Under the pieces are notes generated by a model that saw nothing but the letters and a program-made list of their open reading frames with translations, was not told where the DNA came from and searched no databases. The translations under genes and the position numbers were made by a program. Positions 1 to 8,201 of a stretch of DNA of 64,000 bases are shown here, piece by piece. Origin of the DNA: Burkholderiales bacterium (GTDB lineage Bacteria > Pseudomonadota > Gammaproteobacteria > Burkholderiales > Burkholderiaceae_C); the NCBI GenBank assembly GCA_038234975.1, contig JBBSUK010000003.1, forward strand, positions 1,678 through 65,677. Direction: 5' to 3'. Positions within the stretch are counted from its first letter, which is position 1; every line of letters starts with the position of its first letter.

Positions 1-742
1 TGGCCAGCCGCGTCGCCAGCATCACCGTTCGCGCGCCGGTGTGTGCAGACGGCCGCTCGCGTTCGGTCGCCACTTCGTCGAGCAACGGCGGCAAGCGCCA
101 ACGCGAGATCAGCGAGCGCTGCAAGGTCTCGAGGTCGACGCCGAGCACGTCCTCCTGCACCGCTCGCGAACGCTGAGCCGGATCGCGCCGCTGCTGTCGG
201 GCCACCTCCAGGGCGAGATCCGGCGCCACGCACCAGACCAGAAGCTCGGCGAACTCGTGCAGCAGCGCAGCGGCGTGGATCATCGCCGCGTGCGGGTCGG
301 TGCGATGAACCGACAGCGCCAGTGCGAAGTCGGCGCCGCGCGCCGATCGCGCGACGACGGCGTCGAAGCCTGCTCGCGCGCCGTCGACCCGGTCGAGCAG
401 TGCTTCCACCGAAGGCTGCGGGCCGAAGGCGCGAAAGAAGGGCGAGATTCCGAGCATGACGATGGCCGCCGTCACGGTCTCCGCCGCCGTGACCACCCGA
501 CGTCCCCGGTGACCGGACTCGTACGCGAGCACCTTGAGCGTCATCAGCGGGTCGGCGCAGATCCAGTCGCCGAGCCGGTTCGCATCGACGTCGTCTTCGC
601 GGGCGCGCAACGCTTCCAGCTCGAGAGCCGTTCCGCCGAGGACGGGGATGTCCGTAGATTCGATCGTCGCGATCCACGCCTCGAGCGAGCGGCGCGTGGC
701 CGGAGCGGCTGACGAATCGGCGTCGGTGACGAGGTGGTGCAT
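1..742 (-). CDS. HDOD-domain protein (partial, runs off window start)
   Basis: Not in the ORF track. Manual minus-strand translation from ATG at 742 gives MHHLVTD...DIPVL...DPLMTLKVL...ETVTAAIVMLG...AALLHEFAELL...RWRLP, matching the HDOD pattern, and stays open to position 1. Confidence 0.85.
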   Translation of the reverse strand, partial: MHHLVTDADSSAAPATRRSLEAWIATIESTDIPVLGGTALELEALRAREDDVDANRLGDWICADPLMTLKVLAYESGHRGRRVVTAAETVTAAIVMLGISPFFRAFGPQPSVEALLDRVDGARAGFDAVVARSARGADFALALSVHRTDPHAAMIHAAALLHEFAELLVWCVAPDLALEVARQQRRDPAQRSRAVQEDVLGVDLETLQRSLISRWRLPPLLDEVATERERPSAHTGARTVMLATRLA

Positions 743-832
743 GCGATCGCTCGGGAGCTTGACGACGGTATCGGCTTGTCGCGCGCCGTGCTTGAGCCTA
801 CTCTGACGACGCCACCTATGATCGATCGCACG

Positions 833-1696
833 ATGAGTGAGTACACGGCGATGCCGAACGGCGCCTGGAGATGGCCGCGGATCGGGCTCGGCACCTGGCG
901 CATGGGCGAGGCGCCGGCTCGCCGAAGCGCAGAGGTCGCTGCCATGCGAGCGGCGGTCGAGATGGGCTATCGGTTGATCGACACGGCGGAAATGTACGGC
1001 GATGGCGGCGCGGAATCCATAGTCGGCGAGGCCCTGCGAGACGTCATTGCCTCGGGAACGATCCGTCGCGACGACATCGTCATCGTCAGCAAGGTATACC
1101 CGCATCACGCCAGCCGCGAGGGCGTCGTCGCCGCGTGTCGCCGTAGCCTCGACCGGCTCGGACTCGAGCAGCTCGACGCCTATCTGCTGCATTGGCCGGG
1201 CACGGTGCCGCTGGCCGAAACGGTCGCCGGCTTCGAGGCACTCCGCACGAGCGGCGCGATCCGCGACTGGGGCGTCAGCAACTTCGACGTCGCCGACCTC
1301 GAGCAGCTGATCGCGGTGGACGGTGGAGCCGAGTGCGCCGTCAACCAGATCTACTACTCGCTCGGTGCCCGCGCGCCGGCGTTCGATCTGCTGCCGTGGC
1401 ATGCAGCACACCGCATCGCGACGATGGCGTACTCGCCGCTCGACCAAGGCAGATTGCCGCGACACGCCGCCGTGCGGGCCATCGCGGCGAGGAAAGGGTG
1501 CGACCCCGCCCATGTCGCGATCGCCTGGCTCGTGCGTCAGGCCGGGGTCGTGGCGATTCCGAAGTCGGTGTCGGTGGAACGACTGCGCTCCAACCTCGCG
1601 ACCACCGATGCCGCAACCCTCGATGCTGCCGACCTTGCAGAGCTCGACGCGGCGTTCGCGCCGCCGACCAGCAAGCAACCGCTCGCCATGATCTGA
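833..1696 (+). CDS. Aldo/keto reductase
   Basis: GLGTW, IDTAEMYGDG, SKVYP, LLHWPG, GVSNF, AYSPL and IPKS motifs. Start 833 or 851 rather than 734. Confidence 0.92.
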   Translation: MSEYTAMPNGAWRWPRIGLGTWRMGEAPARRSAEVAAMRAAVEMGYRLIDTAEMYGDGGAESIVGEALRDVIASGTIRRDDIVIVSKVYPHHASREGVVAACRRSLDRLGLEQLDAYLLHWPGTVPLAETVAGFEALRTSGAIRDWGVSNFDVADLEQLIAVDGGAECAVNQIYYSLGARAPAFDLLPWHAAHRIATMAYSPLDQGRLPRHAAVRAIAARKGCDPAHVAIAWLVRQAGVVAIPKSVSVERLRSNLATTDAATLDAADLAELDAAFAPPTSKQPLAMI

Positions 1697-1742
1697 GCGC
1701 GAGCCGTGTGCCGCGCGAAGCGGCACACGGAACTCGACATCG

Positions 1743-1994
1743 TCAAAGGCGACTCACGCTCGACAACCAGCCGACGAACTCGCCGTCGACGAAGAGCGCG
1801 CCTTCGGGCGCTCCGGCCTCGGCGTGAAATTCGACCCGTGGGTCGAGGACCTGGCGGTCGGGGACGGCAACCAGCCGCGCCGCGAACGCCGCGAGCGCGC
1901 GGCTCGCGCCGTGCAGCAGCACGGCAGCCAGGTGCCTGGCCGTTTGCGACTCGGAGCCGCGAGGGCTCCACAACATCTGCTTCGAGTGAACCAC
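1743..1994 (-). CDS. Small hypothetical protein (83 aa)
   Basis: AAGGAGA RBS 6 nt before a GTG. 3' part of track ORF 1743..2261; ends ...GALFVDGEFVGWLSSVSRL. Confidence 0.65.
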   Translation of the reverse strand: MVHSKQMLWSPRGSESQTARHLAAVLLHGASRALAAFAARLVAVPDRQVLDPRVEFHAEAGAPEGALFVDGEFVGWLSSVSRL

Positions 1995-2038
1995 GATGGT
2001 TCTCCTTGTGATGATCGAAGCGACGAACGCTTCGAAAT

Positions 2039-2200
2039 TCAGTGCGGATCGTTCTTCATGTCGCGCACTTCGCCTGCCGTGGCGCGGGCCAGGCGCAGGC
2101 GAACGGCGCCGGTGGACCGGCGATGCGAGCCGGCCTTGCGAAGCCGGGCCGCCGCGACGAGCGGATTGCGCGGACGCACGGGTTGAAGGGTGATCTTCAT
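2039..2200 (-). CDS. Small basic protein (53 aa), MKITLQPVRPRNPLVAAARLRKAGSH...
   Basis: Strong AAAGGAG RBS before the ATG at 2200. Arg/Lys-rich. 3' part of track ORF 2039..2332. Confidence 0.7.
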   Translation of the reverse strand: MKITLQPVRPRNPLVAAARLRKAGSHRRSTGAVRLRLARATAGEVRDMKNDPH

Positions 2201-2228
2201 GAGGAGGCTCCTTTCGAAAGTCGAGCAC

Positions 2229-2272
2229 AGAAAACAGAACGGCCCGGGTGCTGTTGCGCAACCCGGGCCGTG
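2229..2272 (-). terminator. Intrinsic terminator (putative attenuator) upstream of the 53-aa ORF
   Basis: 11-bp inverted repeat ACGGCCCGGGT...ACCCGGGCCGT followed on the minus strand by TCTGTTTTCTG. Confidence 0.75.
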
Positions 2273-2306
2273 GCGGAGACGTCGTCGAACGACGTTTCGC
2301 GTGGCG

Positions 2307-2432
2307 CTATCCGGGCGGCGCTCCATCGGCACCGATGCACATCCATGCGGCGACGCTGCCTGCGGGCAGGCGCGGTGCGTGAGGGATGACAGGGGTGCAG
2401 CGGGACATCGGGATGACCAGGGGTTCCAACAT
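2307..2432 (-). CDS. Putative leader peptide (41 aa; alternative start 2408)
   Basis: Manual translation MLEPLVIPMSRCTPVIPHAPRLPAGSVAAWMCIGADGAPPG*. Lies between a promoter-like sequence and the terminator. Confidence 0.5.
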   Translation of the reverse strand: MLEPLVIPMSRCTPVIPHAPRLPAGSVAAWMCIGADGAPPG

Positions 2433-2477
2433 GGGGTTCGTGGGCGACGTCGCCGGAGCAGGCTCCGACTGGCCGCG

Positions 2478-2507
2478 ATGATAAATGACCCTTTACCTGC
2501 CGCGCAA
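2478..2507 (-). promoter_or_regulatory. Sigma70-like promoter
   Basis: TTGCGC-N18-TATCAT on the minus strand, in an AT-richer patch. Confidence 0.5.
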
Positions 2508-2567
2508 GACGAGCGTGTCGCGATTGCGCGACAGGGCCGACCGCGACGTCACGAGTCGTTCCCGTGG

Positions 2568-3092
2568 CTAGCGCTTGCGCCCGAGCTTGAGCGGTGCGAC
2601 GGCCGACCGCGTCTTCGACCACAGGCGCTCGTCGTCAGACGGCGCGATCGATGCGCCATCGGAGGTTGGCTCGTGTTGCGGGCGCAGGGCTTCTCCGATC
2701 AGCTCGAGGAGCCGCGCCCGCGCCCGCGACGGCTCGCGCCGGTAGTAGCTCAGGACGAGACCGACGATGAATCGTTCATCGTCATCGGAAGGTCCGTCCG
2801 CCGTGGGTAGAAGGGTGGCTCTCGCGTCGTCGTGAGGCGCGTCGAGCCAGCCTGGGGGTCGGCCGCAGCGTTGCTCGAACTGACGCGCGAGCCGGTCGCC
2901 GATCTGCCGCGAGCGCGACTTGATCTGGCTCCAGTAGCTCGGCTGGATGAGCAGCTTCTCGGCGAAGAGACCGTCGAGCCCGCGCAGAGGCGACGCTTCG
3001 GGATTCTTGACCGTGGCGCGGATGAACGCATGGAACAAGGCGGTCGCGTTCTCGTAGCGGATCTGCGCCAGACCGGCAGCGCCACTCGTCAT
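2568..3092 (-). CDS. XRE/CI-like helix-turn-helix regulator
   Basis: FAEKLLIQPSYWSQIK...IGDRLARQFEQRCGRPPGWLD resembles the N-terminus of phage repressors. No recognisable S24 peptidase domain. Confidence 0.7.
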   Translation of the reverse strand: MTSGAAGLAQIRYENATALFHAFIRATVKNPEASPLRGLDGLFAEKLLIQPSYWSQIKSRSRQIGDRLARQFEQRCGRPPGWLDAPHDDARATLLPTADGPSDDDERFIVGLVLSYYRREPSRARARLLELIGEALRPQHEPTSDGASIAPSDDERLWSKTRSAVAPLKLGRKR

Positions 3093-3101
3093 GAACAAAG
3101 A

Positions 3102-3120
3102 TGATACGGAATGTTTATCA
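3102..3120. promoter_or_regulatory. Putative operator palindrome TGATA-N9-TATCA
   Basis: Inverted repeat in an AT-rich gap about 10 nt upstream of the HTH start codon. Confidence 0.35.
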
Positions 3121-3152
3121 AACGATGTTGCGGGACGGCATCCGATCCGGCG

Positions 3153-4655
3153 TCACTGGAACGCGACTTCGGCGAAGCTGCGAAGCTTCCGGCTGTGCAG
3201 TCGGTCGATGCCGCCTTCGCGCAGCAGCTCGATCGCGCGCATGCCGATGCGCAGGTGCTGGTCGACTCGCTCGCGATAGAAATGGTTCGCCATGCCGGGC
3301 AGCTTGATCTCGCCGTGCAGCGGCTTGTCGCTCACGCACAGCAGCGTTCCGTAAGGCACCCGGAAGCGAAACCCGTTGGCGGCGATGGTGGCGCTTTCCA
3401 TGTCGAGGGCGATGGCACGGCTCTGACTGAAGCGCCGCTCGGGGGTCGTCTGCGCGTCGTGCGACGGCAGCAGCTCCCAGTTGCGGTTGTCGGTGCTGGC
3501 GACGGTGCCGGTGCGCATGATCCGCTTGAGTTCGTAGCCCTTCAGCTGCGTCACCTCCTCGACGGCGGATTCGAGCGCGACCTGCACCTCGGCGAGCGCC
3601 GGGATGGGTACCCATAGCGGCAGCTCCTCGTCGAGCACGTGGTCCTCGCGGACGTAGCCGTGGGCAAGGATGTAGTCGCCGAGCTGCTGCGTGTTGCGCA
3701 ATCCGGCGCAGTGGCCGAGCATGACCCAGGCGTGCGGGCGCAGGACGGCGATGTGGTCGGTGATCGTCTTCGCGTTGGCCGGGCCGACGCCGATGTTGAC
3801 CATCGTGATGCCGCTGCGGTCGTCGCGCACCAGGTGGTAGGCGGGCATCTGCGGCAGCCGGGGCAGCGGTGCGCCCGCCGCGTCGCCGGCGCGGGCCGCC
3901 GCGCCGGTCGGTCGGGCGACGACATTGCCGGGCTCGACGAAGGCGTCGTAGCGCCGCTCCCCGGGCGCCGCGGCCATGGCCTCGTGGCCGAGGCGCACGA
4001 ACTCGTCGATGTAGAACTGGTAGTTCGTGAAAAGCACGAAGTTCTGGAAGTGCTCGGGGTCGGTGCCGGTGTAGTGGCGCAGCCGATGCAGCGAATAGTC
4101 CACCCTCGGCGCGGTGAACAGTGCGAGCGGATGCGCCACGCCGGGCGCCGTCACGTGGGTGCCGTTGGCGATCCCGTCGTCCATCGCGCCGAGGTCGGGC
4201 AGGTCGAACAGATCGCGCAGCTGCTGCCGCTGGCGCGGGGTGATGCTGCCTTCGACGTGGTCGTTCTCGGCGAACGAGAAGTGCAGCGGGATCGGCTGCG
4301 TGCTGGTGCCGATCTCGAGCGACACGCCGTGGTTCTCCAGCAGGAGGCGGAACTGCTCGTGGTAGTAGCGGGCGAACAGGTCGGGCCGCGTCAGCGTCGT
4401 CTCGTACGTGCCGGGGCCGGCGACGAAGCCATAGCTCAGTCGCGAGTCGGCGCGGGCGACGGTGTCGGTGTGGACGCGCACGAACGGGTAGCAGGCGCGC
4501 ACGTGGCCGCGCCCGCTGCTGCCTTCGATGAACGCCTGCAGCGCCTGTCTCAGGTGGCCGACGCTGCCGTCGTAGATGGTGCGCACCTGCTCGAGCGCGG
4601 CGGCCGCGTTGTCGAAGTGAATCGGGGCGAGAAAGGGCGGGCGGTTGGCGTCCAT
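3153..4655 (-). CDS. amn: AMP nucleosidase
   Basis: LFTNYQFYIDEF, NIGVGPANAKTITDH, GHCAGLR, ALDMESATIAANGFRFRVPYGTLLCVSDKPLHGE. Confidence 0.95.
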   Translation of the reverse strand: MDANRPPFLAPIHFDNAAAALEQVRTIYDGSVGHLRQALQAFIEGSSGRGHVRACYPFVRVHTDTVARADSRLSYGFVAGPGTYETTLTRPDLFARYYHEQFRLLLENHGVSLEIGTSTQPIPLHFSFAENDHVEGSITPRQRQQLRDLFDLPDLGAMDDGIANGTHVTAPGVAHPLALFTAPRVDYSLHRLRHYTGTDPEHFQNFVLFTNYQFYIDEFVRLGHEAMAAAPGERRYDAFVEPGNVVARPTGAAARAGDAAGAPLPRLPQMPAYHLVRDDRSGITMVNIGVGPANAKTITDHIAVLRPHAWVMLGHCAGLRNTQQLGDYILAHGYVREDHVLDEELPLWVPIPALAEVQVALESAVEEVTQLKGYELKRIMRTGTVASTDNRNWELLPSHDAQTTPERRFSQSRAIALDMESATIAANGFRFRVPYGTLLCVSDKPLHGEIKLPGMANHFYRERVDQHLRIGMRAIELLREGGIDRLHSRKLRSFAEVAFQ

Positions 4656-4811
4656 CGTCGGCGGTCGTTCGGGTCGGATTCCATGGGAAGGCAGAATCCT
4701 TGCCTCTCGACGCATGATGCCGCAGCCTGACGACATGCCGAACAGCGCCGGCGCAGCACGGCGAAGTTTCCCGGCCACGCGCCACCGCAGCGGCTTGCTC
4801 GAGGCGTCTGC

Positions 4812-6086
4812 ATGAGGGTGCTCGTGCTCGGCGCCGGCGTGATCGGCGTCACGGCGGCGTGGGAGCTGGCGCAGGCGGGGCACGACGTGACCGTCGTCGA
4901 CCGGCAGGCCGAGCCGGGGCGCGAGACGAGCTACGCCAACGCCGGCGAGGTCTCGCCGGGCTACTCGGCGCCCTGGGCCGGACCGGGCGTGCCGCTGAAG
5001 GCGATCAAGTGGCTGGCGATGCACCACCGGCCGCTCGTCATCCGGCCGCGGATCGACGCCGCGCTCGTTCGCTGGTCGCTCGCGACGTTGCGCAACTGCA
5101 CCGCCGCACGCTACGCGGTCAACAAGTCGCGCATGGTCCGGCTCGCCGAATACAGCCGCGATCGGCTGCGTGTGCTGCGCGACTCGACCGGCATCGCCTA
5201 CGACGAGCGCATGCAGGGCACGCTGCAGCTCTTTCGCACGCGCAAGCAACTCGACGGCGCCGCCTCCGACATCGCCGTGCTGCGCGACAGCGGCGTCGCC
5301 TTCGAGCTGCTCGATCGCGCCGGCTGCATCGGGCCGGAACCGGCGCTGGCCCGTGTCGCCGACAAGTTCATCGGCGGCCTGCGTCTGCCGGGCGACGAGA
5401 CCGGTGACTGCTTCAAGTTCACGCAGGCACTTGCCCGGCTGGCCGTCGAGCGCGGCGTCGCGTTTCGCTACGGCACCCGGATCGACGCCATCGTTCGCAG
5501 CGGCAACCGCGTCGACGGGGTGCAGACGAGCGCCGGCCGGCTCGACGCCGATGCCTGCGTCGTCGCCCTCGGCAGCTACTCGCCGCTGCTGCTCGCGCCG
5601 ATCGGCATCCGCGTGCCGGTCTATCCGGTCAAGGGCTATTCGCTCACGGTGCCGATCCGCGACGCATCCGGCGCACCGGAATCGACCGTGATGGACGAGA
5701 CGCACAAGGTCGCCGTGACGCGCCTGGGCGAGCGCATCCGCGTCGGCGGCACCGCCGAGCTCGCCGGCTACTCGCGCCAGCTGCACGAGGCGCGGCGTGA
5801 CACGCTCGTGCATGTCGTGAGCGATCTGTTCCCCGCCGGCGGCGACGTGTCGCGGGCCGAGTTCTGGTGCGGCCTCAGGCCGATGACGCCCGATGGCACG
5901 CCGGTCGTCGGCGCGACGCCCGTCGTCGGCCTCTTCCTCGCCACCGGCCACGGCACGCTCGGCTGGACGATGGCGGCAGGCACCGCGCGGCTGATCGCCG
6001 ACGTGGTCTCCGGTCGCGAGCCCGAGATCGACCTCGCGGGGCTGACGAGCGCCCGTTACGCCGGCGCCGTGCGCGCGGCGGGTTGA
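4812..6086 (+). CDS. dadA: D-amino acid dehydrogenase
   Basis: GAGVIG FAD motif, [35 protein letters not shown]. Confidence 0.93.
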
Positions 6087-6130
6087 GCCGCACCGGCTCG
6101 AGCGCGAGCGACAACGCCGAAGCGACCGCC

Positions 6131-7963
6131 GTGGCCACCGAGATCCGTTCGCCCCTGTCCGGCAGCGTCGTCGATGTCGTCGTGGCCGTCGGCGAGACCG
6201 TCGAGACAGGCGCGGTGGTCGCCATCGTCGAGTCGATGAAGATGGAGCACGAGGTCCGCGCGGCCGGGCGCGGACGTGTGGCGTCGGTCCGCGTCGCTGC
6301 AGGCGAGGCGGTCGAAGAAGGCCCGGCGATCGTCGTCGTGATCGATGCCGACGCAGCCGCTCCCGAAGGTGGCCGCGCGCCAGCGCAGGCTGCCACCCGC
6401 TCCGAGAGCGTCGCGTCACCGTCGATCCGCCCCGATCTCGCCGAGCTCGACGCCCGCCACGCACTGACGCTCGATGCGAGCCGGCCCGACGCGGTCGCGC
6501 GCCGCCACGCGCTCGGCCTGCGCACGGCACGCGAGAACATCGCCGACCTGTGCGACAACGGCAGCTTCGTCGAGTACGGCGCCCTGGCATACGCGGCCCA
6601 GGCGACGCGTCGCAGCGTCGACGAGCTCGTGCGACTGACACCGGCCGACGGCATGGTCACCGGCATCGGCACCGTCAATGCGAAGTCGTTCGGCGCGCCA
6701 CGGTCGCGCGCCGTGGTGATGGCCTACGACGCCACCGTGCTCGCCGGCACACAGGGCATGCGCAACCACCAGAAGACCGATCGCCTGCTCGGCGTCGCGT
6801 TCGCCGAATCGCTTCCGGTCGTGTTGTTCGCCGAGGGCGGAGGAGGTCGCCCGGGAGATGTCGACATGCCGATCGTCGCCGGCCTGCATGTGCCGACGTT
6901 CGCGGCACTGGCGCGACTGTCGGGTAAGGTGCCGCTGGTCGCCGTCGTCGCCGGTCGCTGCTTCGCCGGCAACGCTGTGCTCGCAGGCTGCTGCGACGTC
7001 GTCATCGCCACGCGCGACAGCTCGATCGGGCTCGGCGGCCCGGCGATGATCGAAGGCGGCGGGCTCGGCCGCCACGCGCCCGAGGCGATCGGGCCGGGCG
7101 ACGTGCAGTCGCGCTCGGGCGTGATCGACGTGCTCGTCGCCGACGAGGCCGAGGCCGTCGCCGTCGCGAAGCGCTACCTGGCGATGTTCCAGGGCCGACT
7201 CGACGCGTGGAGCACGCCCGACGTCTCGGGGTTGCGCGAGGCGATCCCCGTGCAGCGCCAGCGCGCCTACGATGTCCGCGTCGTCGTCGACGGCATCTTC
7301 GATGTCGGCTCGATCGTGGAGTTGCGCGCCGGCTTCGGGTCGGCGGTCGTGACGGCGCTGGCGCGGCTCGAAGGCAGGCCGGTCGGCGTTGTCGCCAGCC
7401 AGCCGTCGCACCTCGGCGGCGCCGTCGATGCCGACGCCGCCGACAAGGTTGCCCGCTTCTTCCAGCTGTGCGATGCGCACGGGCTGCCGGTGGTGTCACT
7501 CATCGACACGCCCGGCTTCATGGTCGGACCGGCGAGCGAGGCACGGGCTCACGTGCGTCATGCGAGCCGCCTGTTCATCGTCGCGGCGCAGTTGTCGGTG
7601 CCGCTCGTCGCGGTCGTGTTGCGCAAGGCCTATGGGCTGGGCGCGATGGCGCTCGCCGGCGGGAGCCTGCATGCGCCGATGGCGACCGTGTCGTGGCCGA
7701 GCGGCGAGTTCGGGGCGATGGGAATCGAGGGCGCGGTCGACCTCGGCTACCGCAAGGAGCTGGAGGCCGCCGGCGACGGCCGCAACGCGCTCCGCACGCG
7801 GCTCGTCGCCGCCGAGTACGAAAAGGGCAAGGCGATCTCGGCTGCCGCGACGCTCGAGATCGATGCCGTGATCGATCCGGCGCTCACACGCGACTGGATC
7901 GTCAGGGTGCTGCCAGACGCCGCATCCACACGGCGGTCCGGACGATTCGTCGACGCCTGGTGA
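6131..7963 (+). CDS. Biotin-carboxyl-carrier plus carboxyltransferase fusion (acyl-CoA carboxylase family)
   Basis: ESMKMEHEV biotinylation motif, then CT motifs AYDATVLAGTQG, FAEGGGGRPGD and DTPGFMVG. GTG start estimated. Confidence 0.85.
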   Translation: MATEIRSPLSGSVVDVVVAVGETVETGAVVAIVESMKMEHEVRAAGRGRVASVRVAAGEAVEEGPAIVVVIDADAAAPEGGRAPAQAATRSESVASPSIRPDLAELDARHALTLDASRPDAVARRHALGLRTARENIADLCDNGSFVEYGALAYAAQATRRSVDELVRLTPADGMVTGIGTVNAKSFGAPRSRAVVMAYDATVLAGTQGMRNHQKTDRLLGVAFAESLPVVLFAEGGGGRPGDVDMPIVAGLHVPTFAALARLSGKVPLVAVVAGRCFAGNAVLAGCCDVVIATRDSSIGLGGPAMIEGGGLGRHAPEAIGPGDVQSRSGVIDVLVADEAEAVAVAKRYLAMFQGRLDAWSTPDVSGLREAIPVQRQRAYDVRVVVDGIFDVGSIVELRAGFGSAVVTALARLEGRPVGVVASQPSHLGGAVDADAADKVARFFQLCDAHGLPVVSLIDTPGFMVGPASEARAHVRHASRLFIVAAQLSVPLVAVVLRKAYGLGAMALAGGSLHAPMATVSWPSGEFGAMGIEGAVDLGYRKELEAAGDGRNALRTRLVAAEYEKGKAISAAATLEIDAVIDPALTRDWIVRVLPDAASTRRSGRFVDAW

Positions 7964-7988
7964 GCGGCCGGGGCACGGCTCGCGGCGC

Positions 7989-8201
7989 TCAGTCGACGGA
8001 GTGGTCGAATCCGCTCGACGGCGGGTCGGCCCAGTGGCCGGCGACGAGCGCCGGGTGAGCCGCTTCGTAGCCGAGCGCGAAGTCGGTGGCCTCGGTGTCG
8101 TAGCTGCCCTGGTTCGCGGCGCGCGGCTTCATCGCGGCCGGTCCACCTCCGGAGAAGTACCAGCGCTTCACGTCGTCGACCCAATCGGAATCGTTGTTCA
8201 T
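7989..8201 (-). CDS. Small acidic hypothetical protein (about 70 aa)
   Basis: MNNDSDWVDDVKRWYF... has protein-like composition unlike the shadow ORFs and fills an otherwise empty gap. Confidence 0.5.
   Translation of the reverse strand: MNNDSDWVDDVKRWYFSGGGPAAMKPRAANQGSYDTEATDFALGYEAAHPALVAGHWADPPSSGFDHSVD

Follow-up and report, generated by a model that had tools for sequence, protein, structure and literature searches.

A candidate leader-peptide transcription attenuator with a conserved Gly-Ala-Pro-Pro-Gly motif in front of a two-gene small-protein operon of Burkholderiales

We describe here a candidate transcription attenuator on the minus strand of a 64,000-nucleotide (nt) stretch of DNA from a Burkholderiales bacterium (assembly GCA_038234975.1, contig JBBSUK010000003.1, positions 1,678 to 65,677), which is hereafter called the window and whose own numbering is used throughout. 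A preliminary description of this DNA had drawn attention to a promoter, a 41-codon open reading frame (ORF), a 7-base-pair (bp) hairpin, a GC-rich terminator, a ribosome-binding site and a 53-residue ORF, and each of these is indeed found on the minus strand at the coordinates that it gave. Together with a second small ORF downstream and a gene for a helix-turn-helix (HTH) protein upstream, they form the following arrangement, given in the direction of transcription:

2568..3092, minus strand: ORF of 176 amino acids with a Cro/CI-like HTH segment (..QPSYWSQIKS..IGDRLARQFE..GWLD), from the ORF list; the upstream member of the conserved module.
2478..2507, minus strand: candidate promoter read from the sequence, with a -35 element TTGCGC (2507-2502), an 18-nt spacer and a -10 element TATCAT (2483-2478, within TTTATCAT).
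2454..2467, minus strand: 5'-proximal stem-loop of the leader transcript, CGGAGC-CT-GCTCCG, predicted by folding.
2307..2432, minus strand: leader ORF of 41 codons from the ORF list, MLEPLVIPMSRCTPVIPHAPRLPAGSVAAWMCIGADGAPPG then stop, with ATG at 2432-2430 and TAG at 2309-2307.
2310..2324, minus strand: GGA GCG CCG CCC GGA, coding for G-A-P-P-G; a pause-type motif and the 5' strand of the predicted antiterminator.
2279..2295, minus strand: hairpin H1 of 7 bp, ACGTCGT-TCG-ACGACGT, nested in the predicted antiterminator (sequence and folding).
2229..2270, minus strand: intrinsic terminator and putative attenuator, with the stem CGGCCCGGGTTGC...GCACCCGGGCCG (2270-2240) followed by the U-rich tail GTTCTGTTTTCTG (sequence and RNAfold).
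2039..2214, minus strand: ORF1 from the ORF list, with the Shine-Dalgarno (SD) sequence AAAGGAG (2214-2208), ATG at 2200 and 53 amino acids to 2039, MKITLQPVRPRNPLVAAARLRKAGSHRRS...
2015..2035, minus strand: intercistronic hairpin TCGAAGCG-TTCGT-CGCTTCGA directly 3' of the ORF1 stop, read from the sequence.
1743..2007, minus strand: ORF2 from the ORF list and alignments, with the SD sequence AAGGAGA (2007-2001), a GTG start at 1994, 83 amino acids and the C-terminal end ..EFHAEAGAPEGALFVDGEFVGWLSSVSRL.

The leader ORF thus ends GGA GCG CCG CCC GGA TAG, with G-A-P-P-G placed immediately before the stop codon. The terminator is present in the minimum-energy fold of the window leader computed with RNAfold, and the fold energy of the leader as a whole is unremarkable (z-score of -1.04). 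Both the promoter and the terminator escaped a simple consensus scanner; given the 18-nt spacer, the weak -35 element and a loop of more than 8 nt on the perfect stem, this omission is no evidence against either feature. An Rfam 15 scan of positions 1-8000 at E <= 1 placed no family on the leader, and Pfam and NCBIfam yielded no match for the leader peptide, ORF1, ORF2 or the 176-residue protein. Lying outside these three collections, the leader, its hairpin and the small ORFs are likely to have been missed or left unnamed in genome annotation.

A search with an ORF2 alignment, using one genome per species, recovered 455 relatives, of which the best 80 provided the loci analysed; the leader was assessed in a non-redundant set of 70 loci with both a -10 element and a terminator. 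Taking as a qualifying leader any ATG-initiated ORF with 17 codons or more, a start 40-110 nt past the -10 element and a stop 15-50 nt before the terminator, we found one in 65 of the 70 loci, as against 4.7 in dinucleotide shuffles and 7 in the reverse complement. The relatives comprise metagenome-assembled genomes and isolates named Rubrivivax, Piscinibacter, Rhizobacter, Roseateles, Ideonella, Caldimonas, Aquabacterium, Methylibium, Rhodoferax and Polaromonas, and the same arrangement also occurs in genomes of the same genus as the window. The promoter, leader ORF, hairpin, terminator and small downstream ORFs are therefore kept across many genera in the layout of a ribosome-dependent transcription attenuator, the class to which the preliminary description had assigned them.

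A covariance model built on the segment from the motif to the terminator and run on 301 genomes sampled from the same family found matches in 62 of them, and ORF2 itself is present in 70 of the 301. In 28 of the 30 best covariance-model matches an ORF2 match lies 25-650 nt further 3' on the same strand. One match without a nearby ORF2 (L127, E = 1e-5), considered as a possible case of the leader in front of another gene, proved on inspection to be an ordinary terminator between convergent genes. ORF2 was not found outside this family in a 401-genome sample of the order. The model matches and the genome samples together indicate that the leader is specific to the ORF1/ORF2 operon and is no general device in front of rtcB, prfH, arfB or ABC-F genes, which the preliminary description had named as possible downstream genes.

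The gap between the terminator and ORF1 has a median length of 46 nt, and ORF1 is preceded by an SD sequence in 63 of 64 loci. There is apparently no room in this gap for a separate promoter of ORF1 and ORF2; they would therefore be reached through the terminator, which would accordingly be an attenuator. A different reading of the same layout treats the promoter-to-terminator unit as a self-contained small gene, either for a small RNA of about 230 nt or for a functional micropeptide, with ORF1 and ORF2 served by unregulated leakage through the terminator. The unit does have a conserved promoter to itself, together with a 5' hairpin and a strong terminator, and its terminated transcript would be abundant if that terminator is efficient. 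However, it is essentially confined to the front of ORF1/ORF2, which have no visible promoter of their own across this short gap, its peptide is of widely varying length with an unconstrained N-terminus, unlike a functional peptide, and its motif has a conserved complementarity to the terminator (see below). We therefore regard a free-standing small gene as improbable.

Examination of the 70 leaders shows that the encoded peptide ranges from 9 to 84 residues, with a median of 40.5, and ends in TGA (59), TAG (7) or TAA (4). Within clades the ORF length is identical (129, 108, 117 or 126 nt). In the clade of the window an earlier stop has arisen right after the PPG codons, and the old ..CGCTGA persists in the flank of H1. 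Substitutions 5' of the motif are evenly spread across codon positions, and the N-terminal codons drift in a roughly neutral fashion; maintenance of the frame with such freedom in the N-terminal sequence is as expected of a regulatory leader peptide. The preliminary description had noted correctly that the peptide lacks a run of any single amino acid, and had likened it to WMCIG-type leaders before translation-stress genes. While the ORF which it expected to be conserved in homologous loci is kept, the WMCIG residues drift among the leaders, and the conserved part is instead G-A-P-P-G: APPG occurs in 44 of the 70 leaders, PPG in 46, PG in 59 and the entire GAPPG in 30.

In an alignment anchored on the Pro-Gly codons, the entropy over G-A-P-P-G is 0-1.05 bits at the first and second codon positions and 1.2-1.9 bits at the third; the Ala and first Gly codons lie outside the anchoring, and their third positions are near random. 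This three-base periodicity is a coding signature, in contrast to H1, which varies at all positions between clades. The choice of proline codons is in addition not random: CCC is never used for the first Pro (0 of 46), which is encoded by CCG or CCA, and the second is CCC in 34 of 46, against a background in ORF2 of the same loci of 46% CCC and 40% CCG, which points to an extra nucleotide-level constraint on the motif. We infer from these patterns that the leader ORF is translated in vivo. They also bear on the proposal that the element is an RNA switch controlled by a protein or ligand, in which the ORF would be incidental and the CCCGGG-type segments, along with a C-rich box in the 5' untranslated region (GACACCCCGCC..GATCAACCC), would serve as binding or pairing sites, the candidate binder being the 176-residue protein. 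There are indeed conserved non-coding boxes in the 5' untranslated region, most leaders have no SD sequence, and the HTH gene is adjacent in 60 of 78 loci. Against this stand the three-nucleotide periodicity of conservation over GAPPG, the maintenance of frame, start and stop, and the absence of an Rfam family match, while the HTH protein more plausibly binds a DNA palindrome that lies across the promoter. We consider a switch of this kind highly improbable.

The window leader contains both A-P-P and P-P-G, which are strong XPPX pause contexts dependent on the elongation factor EF-P; such strong Pro-Pro contexts were reportedly described by Peil et al. in 2013. Since Pro-Pro-Gly is a known pause motif, it is plausible from the sequence that the element senses ribosome stalling, as the preliminary description had supposed. 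Genes for EarP (PF10093, 317 bits) and EF-P (PF01132) lie next to each other in the same assembly (contig C19, 29829-31304), from which it follows that the organism uses EF-P of the rhamnosyl-arginine type. Betaproteobacteria typically have EF-P of the EarP type (PMC12856214).

The terminator core GGCCCGGG/CCCGGGCC (GGCCCGG / CCGGGCC) shows little or no variation across 62 aligned loci, which is unusual for a terminator. Between the leader stop codon and the terminator, a hairpin of at least 5 bp (H1) is found in 68 of the 70 loci, with a mean z of -1.86 relative to shuffles; its sequence is clade-specific, and the stop codon lies within its stem, the first paired base being a median of 5 nt before the end of the stop codon. 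CCCGGG is a palindrome, and hence Pro-Gly codons of the form CCC GGN or CCG GGN are at once a copy and the complement of the terminator core. When transcripts were folded only as far as the terminator loop, so that the 3' arm was absent, predicted pairing of the 5' arm with the final 30 nt of the ORF had a summed probability of >0.5 in about 50 of the 70 loci. The predicted helices join the GAPPG codons and a few flanking codons to the terminator 5' arm and loop, with H1 nested within to give one long imperfect hairpin. In the alignment the proposed antiterminator pairing holds in 72.6% of the cells, as against 30-46% with the partners slid, and cognate leader and loop extensions pair slightly better than non-cognate ones (p = 0.013, a weakly positive result). 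The idea that the last leader codons can pair with the terminator thus gains support from both folding and alignment. The complementarity between motif and terminator is conserved, without covariation, and the folding predictions suggest that an antiterminator may form.

On the strength of the conserved layout and these predictions, the element is in all probability a genuine switch operated by ribosomes, of a kind already familiar. More specifically, we hold with moderate confidence that it attenuates transcription through a translated leader peptide with a Pro-Pro pause, controlling the two-gene small-protein operon of ORF1 and ORF2 in such a way that a parked ribosome leads to termination. 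According to this model, transcription would start about 7 nt after TATCAT, and the short ORF would be translated from a weak, mostly SD-less start, only the G-A-P-P-G C-terminus of its product mattering in sequence. The terminator, whose core is the palindrome CCCGGG, has in its 5' arm and loop the complement of the GAPPG codons (GCN CCN CCC GGN). In naked RNA these codons would zip with the terminator 5' arm around H1 to form the antiterminator, permitting read-through into ORF1 and ORF2, and a ribosome on GAPPG would hide the antiterminator strand, so that the terminator forms and transcription stops. Such a ribosome would be held by the slow Pro-Pro-Gly step and then, a few codons later, by termination inside the H1 stem. 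The operon would then be off as long as leader translation keeps pace with transcription, and on when ribosomes are late at the leader end, for example upon translation stress, ribosome shortage or a stall upstream, with the EF-P/EarP-dependent length of the Pro-Pro pause tuning the threshold. Loss of EF-P is known to increase premature termination at intrinsic terminators through uncoupling (PMC5021804).

The direction proposed for this switch is suggested by the geometry of the locus. Positioned with the Pro codons at its P and A sites, a ribosome would span roughly -15 to +15 nt, which is the very strand predicted to pair with the terminator arm; as the motif codons themselves would be the antiterminator strand, a ribosome stalled at them should favour termination and not read-through. 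The main rival keeps the same attenuator with the classical polarity: a stall at Pro-Pro-Gly, arising from low EF-P/EarP activity or from scarce Pro- or Gly-tRNA, would be the inducer and lead to read-through into ORF1/ORF2, as in mgtL, mgtP and HisL with substituted PP. We consider this possible, if doubtful. In its favour, PPG and APP are strong EF-P-dependent pause contexts within what is the sole conserved part of the peptide, efp and earP are both present in this genome, and stalling in known Pro-codon leaders turns genes on (PMC6460261, PMC8129111). Moreover, a local hairpin that a ribosome could melt competes in the motif region (GGUGC/GCGCC in the window, GGUGCCCC/GGGGCGCC in Rubrivivax-type leaders). 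What speaks against it is that the ribosome at the Pro codons would cover the whole of the arm-pairing segment, and that there is no consistent complementarity to the terminator 3' of this footprint, the sequence of H1 being clade-specific.

Several observations weigh against the parked-ribosome attenuator and have to be set beside the evidence for it. With regard to polarity, the known Pro-codon leaders, namely mgtL and the engineered HisL*, switch genes on and not off upon stalling. With regard to RNA structure, the full-length minimum-energy fold holds the terminator in 69 of the 70 loci; any read-through therefore has to be a kinetic effect, and the polarity is beyond what equilibrium modelling can decide. 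The antiterminator displays no covariation beyond column composition, 60 of 500 shuffles reaching the observed pairing. Furthermore, in every equilibrium fold the GC-rich arm of the terminator is paired with something, also when the motif is masked, and hence the predicted helix is not unique; likewise, masking of ribosome footprints in equilibrium folding failed to discriminate the scenarios, as the arm always finds a distant partner. With regard to the leader itself, Pro-Gly is missing in 11 of the 70 leaders, an SD-like tetramer stands before just 10 of the 70 leader ATGs, a far smaller share than for ORF1, the ATG is replaced by CTG in two relatives of the same genus (L006, about 455-465; L009, about 2075-2065, minus strand), and one relative has a truncated leader frame.

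Both CTG-bearing relatives have a good SD sequence, AGGAG or AGGAA, ahead of the CTG, and a short in-frame MGA.GAPPG ORF is still present in them. At the locus with the truncated frame (L008 / L039, 1-240) a different sequence stands 5' of the GAPPG codons, and the leader frame is interrupted by an in-frame TGA; instead, an ATG-initiated ORF in another frame runs through H1 and the terminator, its final ATGA overlapping with the start of ORF1. Either the locus is a rearranged variant with translational coupling, or the assembly is in error here, close to the end of a contig.

Comparison with known systems helps in placing the element. Like the leaders trpL, hisL, pheL, leuL, thrL and those of the ilv operons, it combines a promoter-proximal short ORF with an intrinsic terminator and a predicted alternative helix that takes up the terminator 5' arm and overlaps the end of the ORF, such that the position of the ribosome would decide which structure forms. 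It cannot be counted among these amino-acid-operon attenuators, since its codons form no run for any one amino acid and the genes downstream encode two small proteins and are not biosynthetic. It further differs from them in that the conserved codons lie in the predicted antiterminator strand itself and not 5' of it, in the extra hairpin H1 nested in that predicted antiterminator, and in the absence of sequence homology. The Salmonella leaders mgtL (of mgtA) and mgtP (of mgtCBR) use Pro codons, as is proposed here, to couple translation speed or EF-P activity to a choice of RNA structure and to downstream transcription (PMC6460261; PMC12856214). However, mgtA is governed by Rho-dependent termination and is turned on by stalling, whereas the terminator here is a canonical intrinsic one and stalling would, to judge from the geometry, switch the operon off; neither the taxa nor the target genes are related, and there is no homology. 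In the HisL leader, Pro-Pro motifs change attenuation in vivo and the choice of proline codon matters (PMC8129111). The engineered HisL* reporter of that work parallels our element in that XPPX motifs in the leader peptide shift, or here would shift, the outcome at the attenuator; unlike it, HisL* is synthetic, with the pause at the former His codons and pausing leading to read-through, and here a natural motif lies at the proposed antiterminator strand.

A further parallel is offered by the RAPP or 'RQH' arrest peptides (SecM, ApdA, ApdP, ApcA, YwcI), in which X-A-P-P-type motifs near the C-terminus of variable peptides of upstream ORFs stall ribosomes with the codon of the third residue in the P site (PMC10987492). 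The element shares with them an X-A-P-P/G motif near the C-terminus of an otherwise unconserved peptide of an upstream ORF. Judged by their motif definition, (R/Q/H)-(A/G/D)-(P/G/S)-(P/G), as given in PMC10987492, the leaders do not belong to this family: the first position, where Arg, Gln or His is required, is Gly (30 of the 44 APPG leaders) or Ala, and [RQH]APP is represented by R-A-P-P in just 1 of the 70 leaders. Neither is the element found 5' of sec or yidC genes, and its read-out would be transcription termination instead of the unmasking of a ribosome-binding site. The peptide lists, on inspection, disclosed no conserved signal sequence in the leader N-termini, no signal-peptide predictor having been run. 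The ermCL and cat/cmlA leaders and toiL of topAI-yjhQ use, as is proposed here, a leader ORF that reports the state of the ribosome to control downstream genes. In antibiotic-sensing leaders, drug-bound ribosomes stall at defined codons, and most of these leaders act on translation or Rho; unlike in such leaders for antibiotics or translation stress, nothing at the present element points to a drug. Our literature searches found no description of this element. The doubling of the motif codons as the antiterminator strand, as modelled here, would be a mechanistic twist on leader-peptide attenuators. Should the model be true, the element would represent a natural, widely conserved attenuator that senses by means of an intrinsic Pro-Pro-Gly pause and not a run of amino-acid codons, and a compact system linking pause length, EF-P/EarP activity and transcription-translation coupling to read-through at a terminator.

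The first gene of the operon, ORF1, is strongly conserved; it is present in 81 of 90 loci and has the family consensus MKIT..KPRNPLVA..FRRAGSHR..RQ..L.REL...HSP-TGA. Its relatives in metagenomes form >3386 protein clusters, all of them hypothetical and without a Pfam domain. We considered whether ORF1 might be a rescue factor of the ArfA/BrfA/ArfT type; 34 members gave no Pfam match at E <= 10, ArfA included, and no PDB chain at E <= 10, and the candidate was set aside. The end of ORF1 is ..HSP, ..HIP or ..PSP before a TGA stop in most relatives, with a hairpin 3' of the stop, whereas the window ORF1 (2039-2044, minus strand) ends in ..DPH-TGA; by reading and without statistics, hairpins comparable to that at 2015..2035 are present in relatives just 3' of the ORF1 stop. 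Translation terminates poorly at Pro-UGA, and this along with the hairpin after the stop raises the possibility of a second point of translational control ahead of ORF2. Some relatives have a shortened ORF1, and a few lack it. In the closest relative (L021, 2375-2456) an in-frame internal deletion leaves 26 amino acids, one subclade (L004, L006, L007, L009) has a version of 25-26 amino acids, M.HT.M..SR..IAV....MK..IP, and in a few genomes (G140:C8, G320:C41) ORF2 directly follows the terminator. ORF2 looks like the indispensable gene of the pair.

ORF2 proteins, with the conserved sequence EFHAEAGAPEGALYVDG, have a variable N-terminal part, a helix rich in Arg and an invariant end, ..EF[HY]AEAGAPEGALYVDG.LVG.L.GV.RL. 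An AlphaFold2 model of ORF2 has a helix (14-42) and a beta-hairpin (66-76), with a predicted local distance difference test score (pLDDT) of 73. A profile search against the PDB gave no match, and a Foldseek search of the PDB with the model gave only non-significant matches (E of 5-10), three of the four being to T4 fibritin. T4 fibritin is a coiled coil with a C-terminal beta-hairpin 'foldon', and the ORF2 end APEGALYVDG.FVGWL is loosely foldon-like.

Upstream of the leader, the promoter elements recur across homologous loci: the -10 element is TTTATCAT, replaced by CTAAGAT or CAAAGAT in three genus-level loci, and the -35 element is of a TTGC type, mostly TTGCGC or TTGCCA. In most other genera, for example at L041 and L080, the leader promoter lies inside a palindrome, TTGCGCAAGATAA-N8-TTATC(AT)TTGCGCAA. 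The extended palindrome spans the -35 element, the -10 element and the start site (L023-L100), and the copy in the window (2470-2510) is degenerate. This palindrome looks like the operator of a dimeric repressor, for which the adjacent HTH protein is possibly the binder. A homolog of the 176-residue protein is encoded just 5' of the leader promoter on the same strand in those 60 of the 78 loci. In the window TATCAT lies 8 nt before its ATG, and in 14 other loci inspected TTTATCAT lies 6-9 nt before the ATG. The gene has no SD sequence (window 3090-3125, minus strand; homologs in L022-L099). The proximity of TTTATCAT to the ATG suggests that its mRNA is probably leaderless, and its promoter probably uses a -10 element common to the leader promoter. 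At the 5' end of the leader transcript, relatives have, as judged by eye, a hairpin of other sequence at the equivalent place. Between this hairpin and the SD-less ATG, the C-rich, G-poor box mentioned above is conserved at most loci (L033, L056, L062; window 2436-2452), and may serve as an enhancer of non-SD initiation, as a rut-like site or as a further partner of the terminator arm.

Should the model hold, the element would mark the 176-residue HTH protein, ORF1 and ORF2, three uncharacterised genes, as one regulated module, and the tight translational control would hint at a role of this module in translation stress. In its broadest form, which we offer as speculative and on balance unlikely, the attenuator would be a family-wide sensor of ribosomes keeping up with transcription. 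GAPPG would act as a parking brake that holds the operon off, and the non-arrival of ribosomes or an EF-P/EarP-dependent change at Pro-Pro would turn on ORF1 (a basic protein of 52 residues, KPRNPLVA..AGSHR) and ORF2 (approximately 85 residues), which would act on stressed ribosomes or translation, with the leaderless HTH repressor adding a second layer at the palindromic promoter.

Two further features lie downstream of the operon:

1704..1730, minus strand: operon-end hairpin CCGTGTGCCGC-TTCG-GCGGCACACGG, common to the operon and the convergent aldo/keto reductase gene.
734-1696, plus strand: aldo/keto reductase gene, convergent with the operon.

On the other side of the module, the Rfam family Xoo5, a small RNA of Xanthomonadaceae, gave a sub-threshold match at 3132-3244 on the minus strand (22 bits against a cut-off of 50, E = 0.36). 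This match is probably due to chance, and it overlaps the 3' end of an AMP nucleosidase-like gene.

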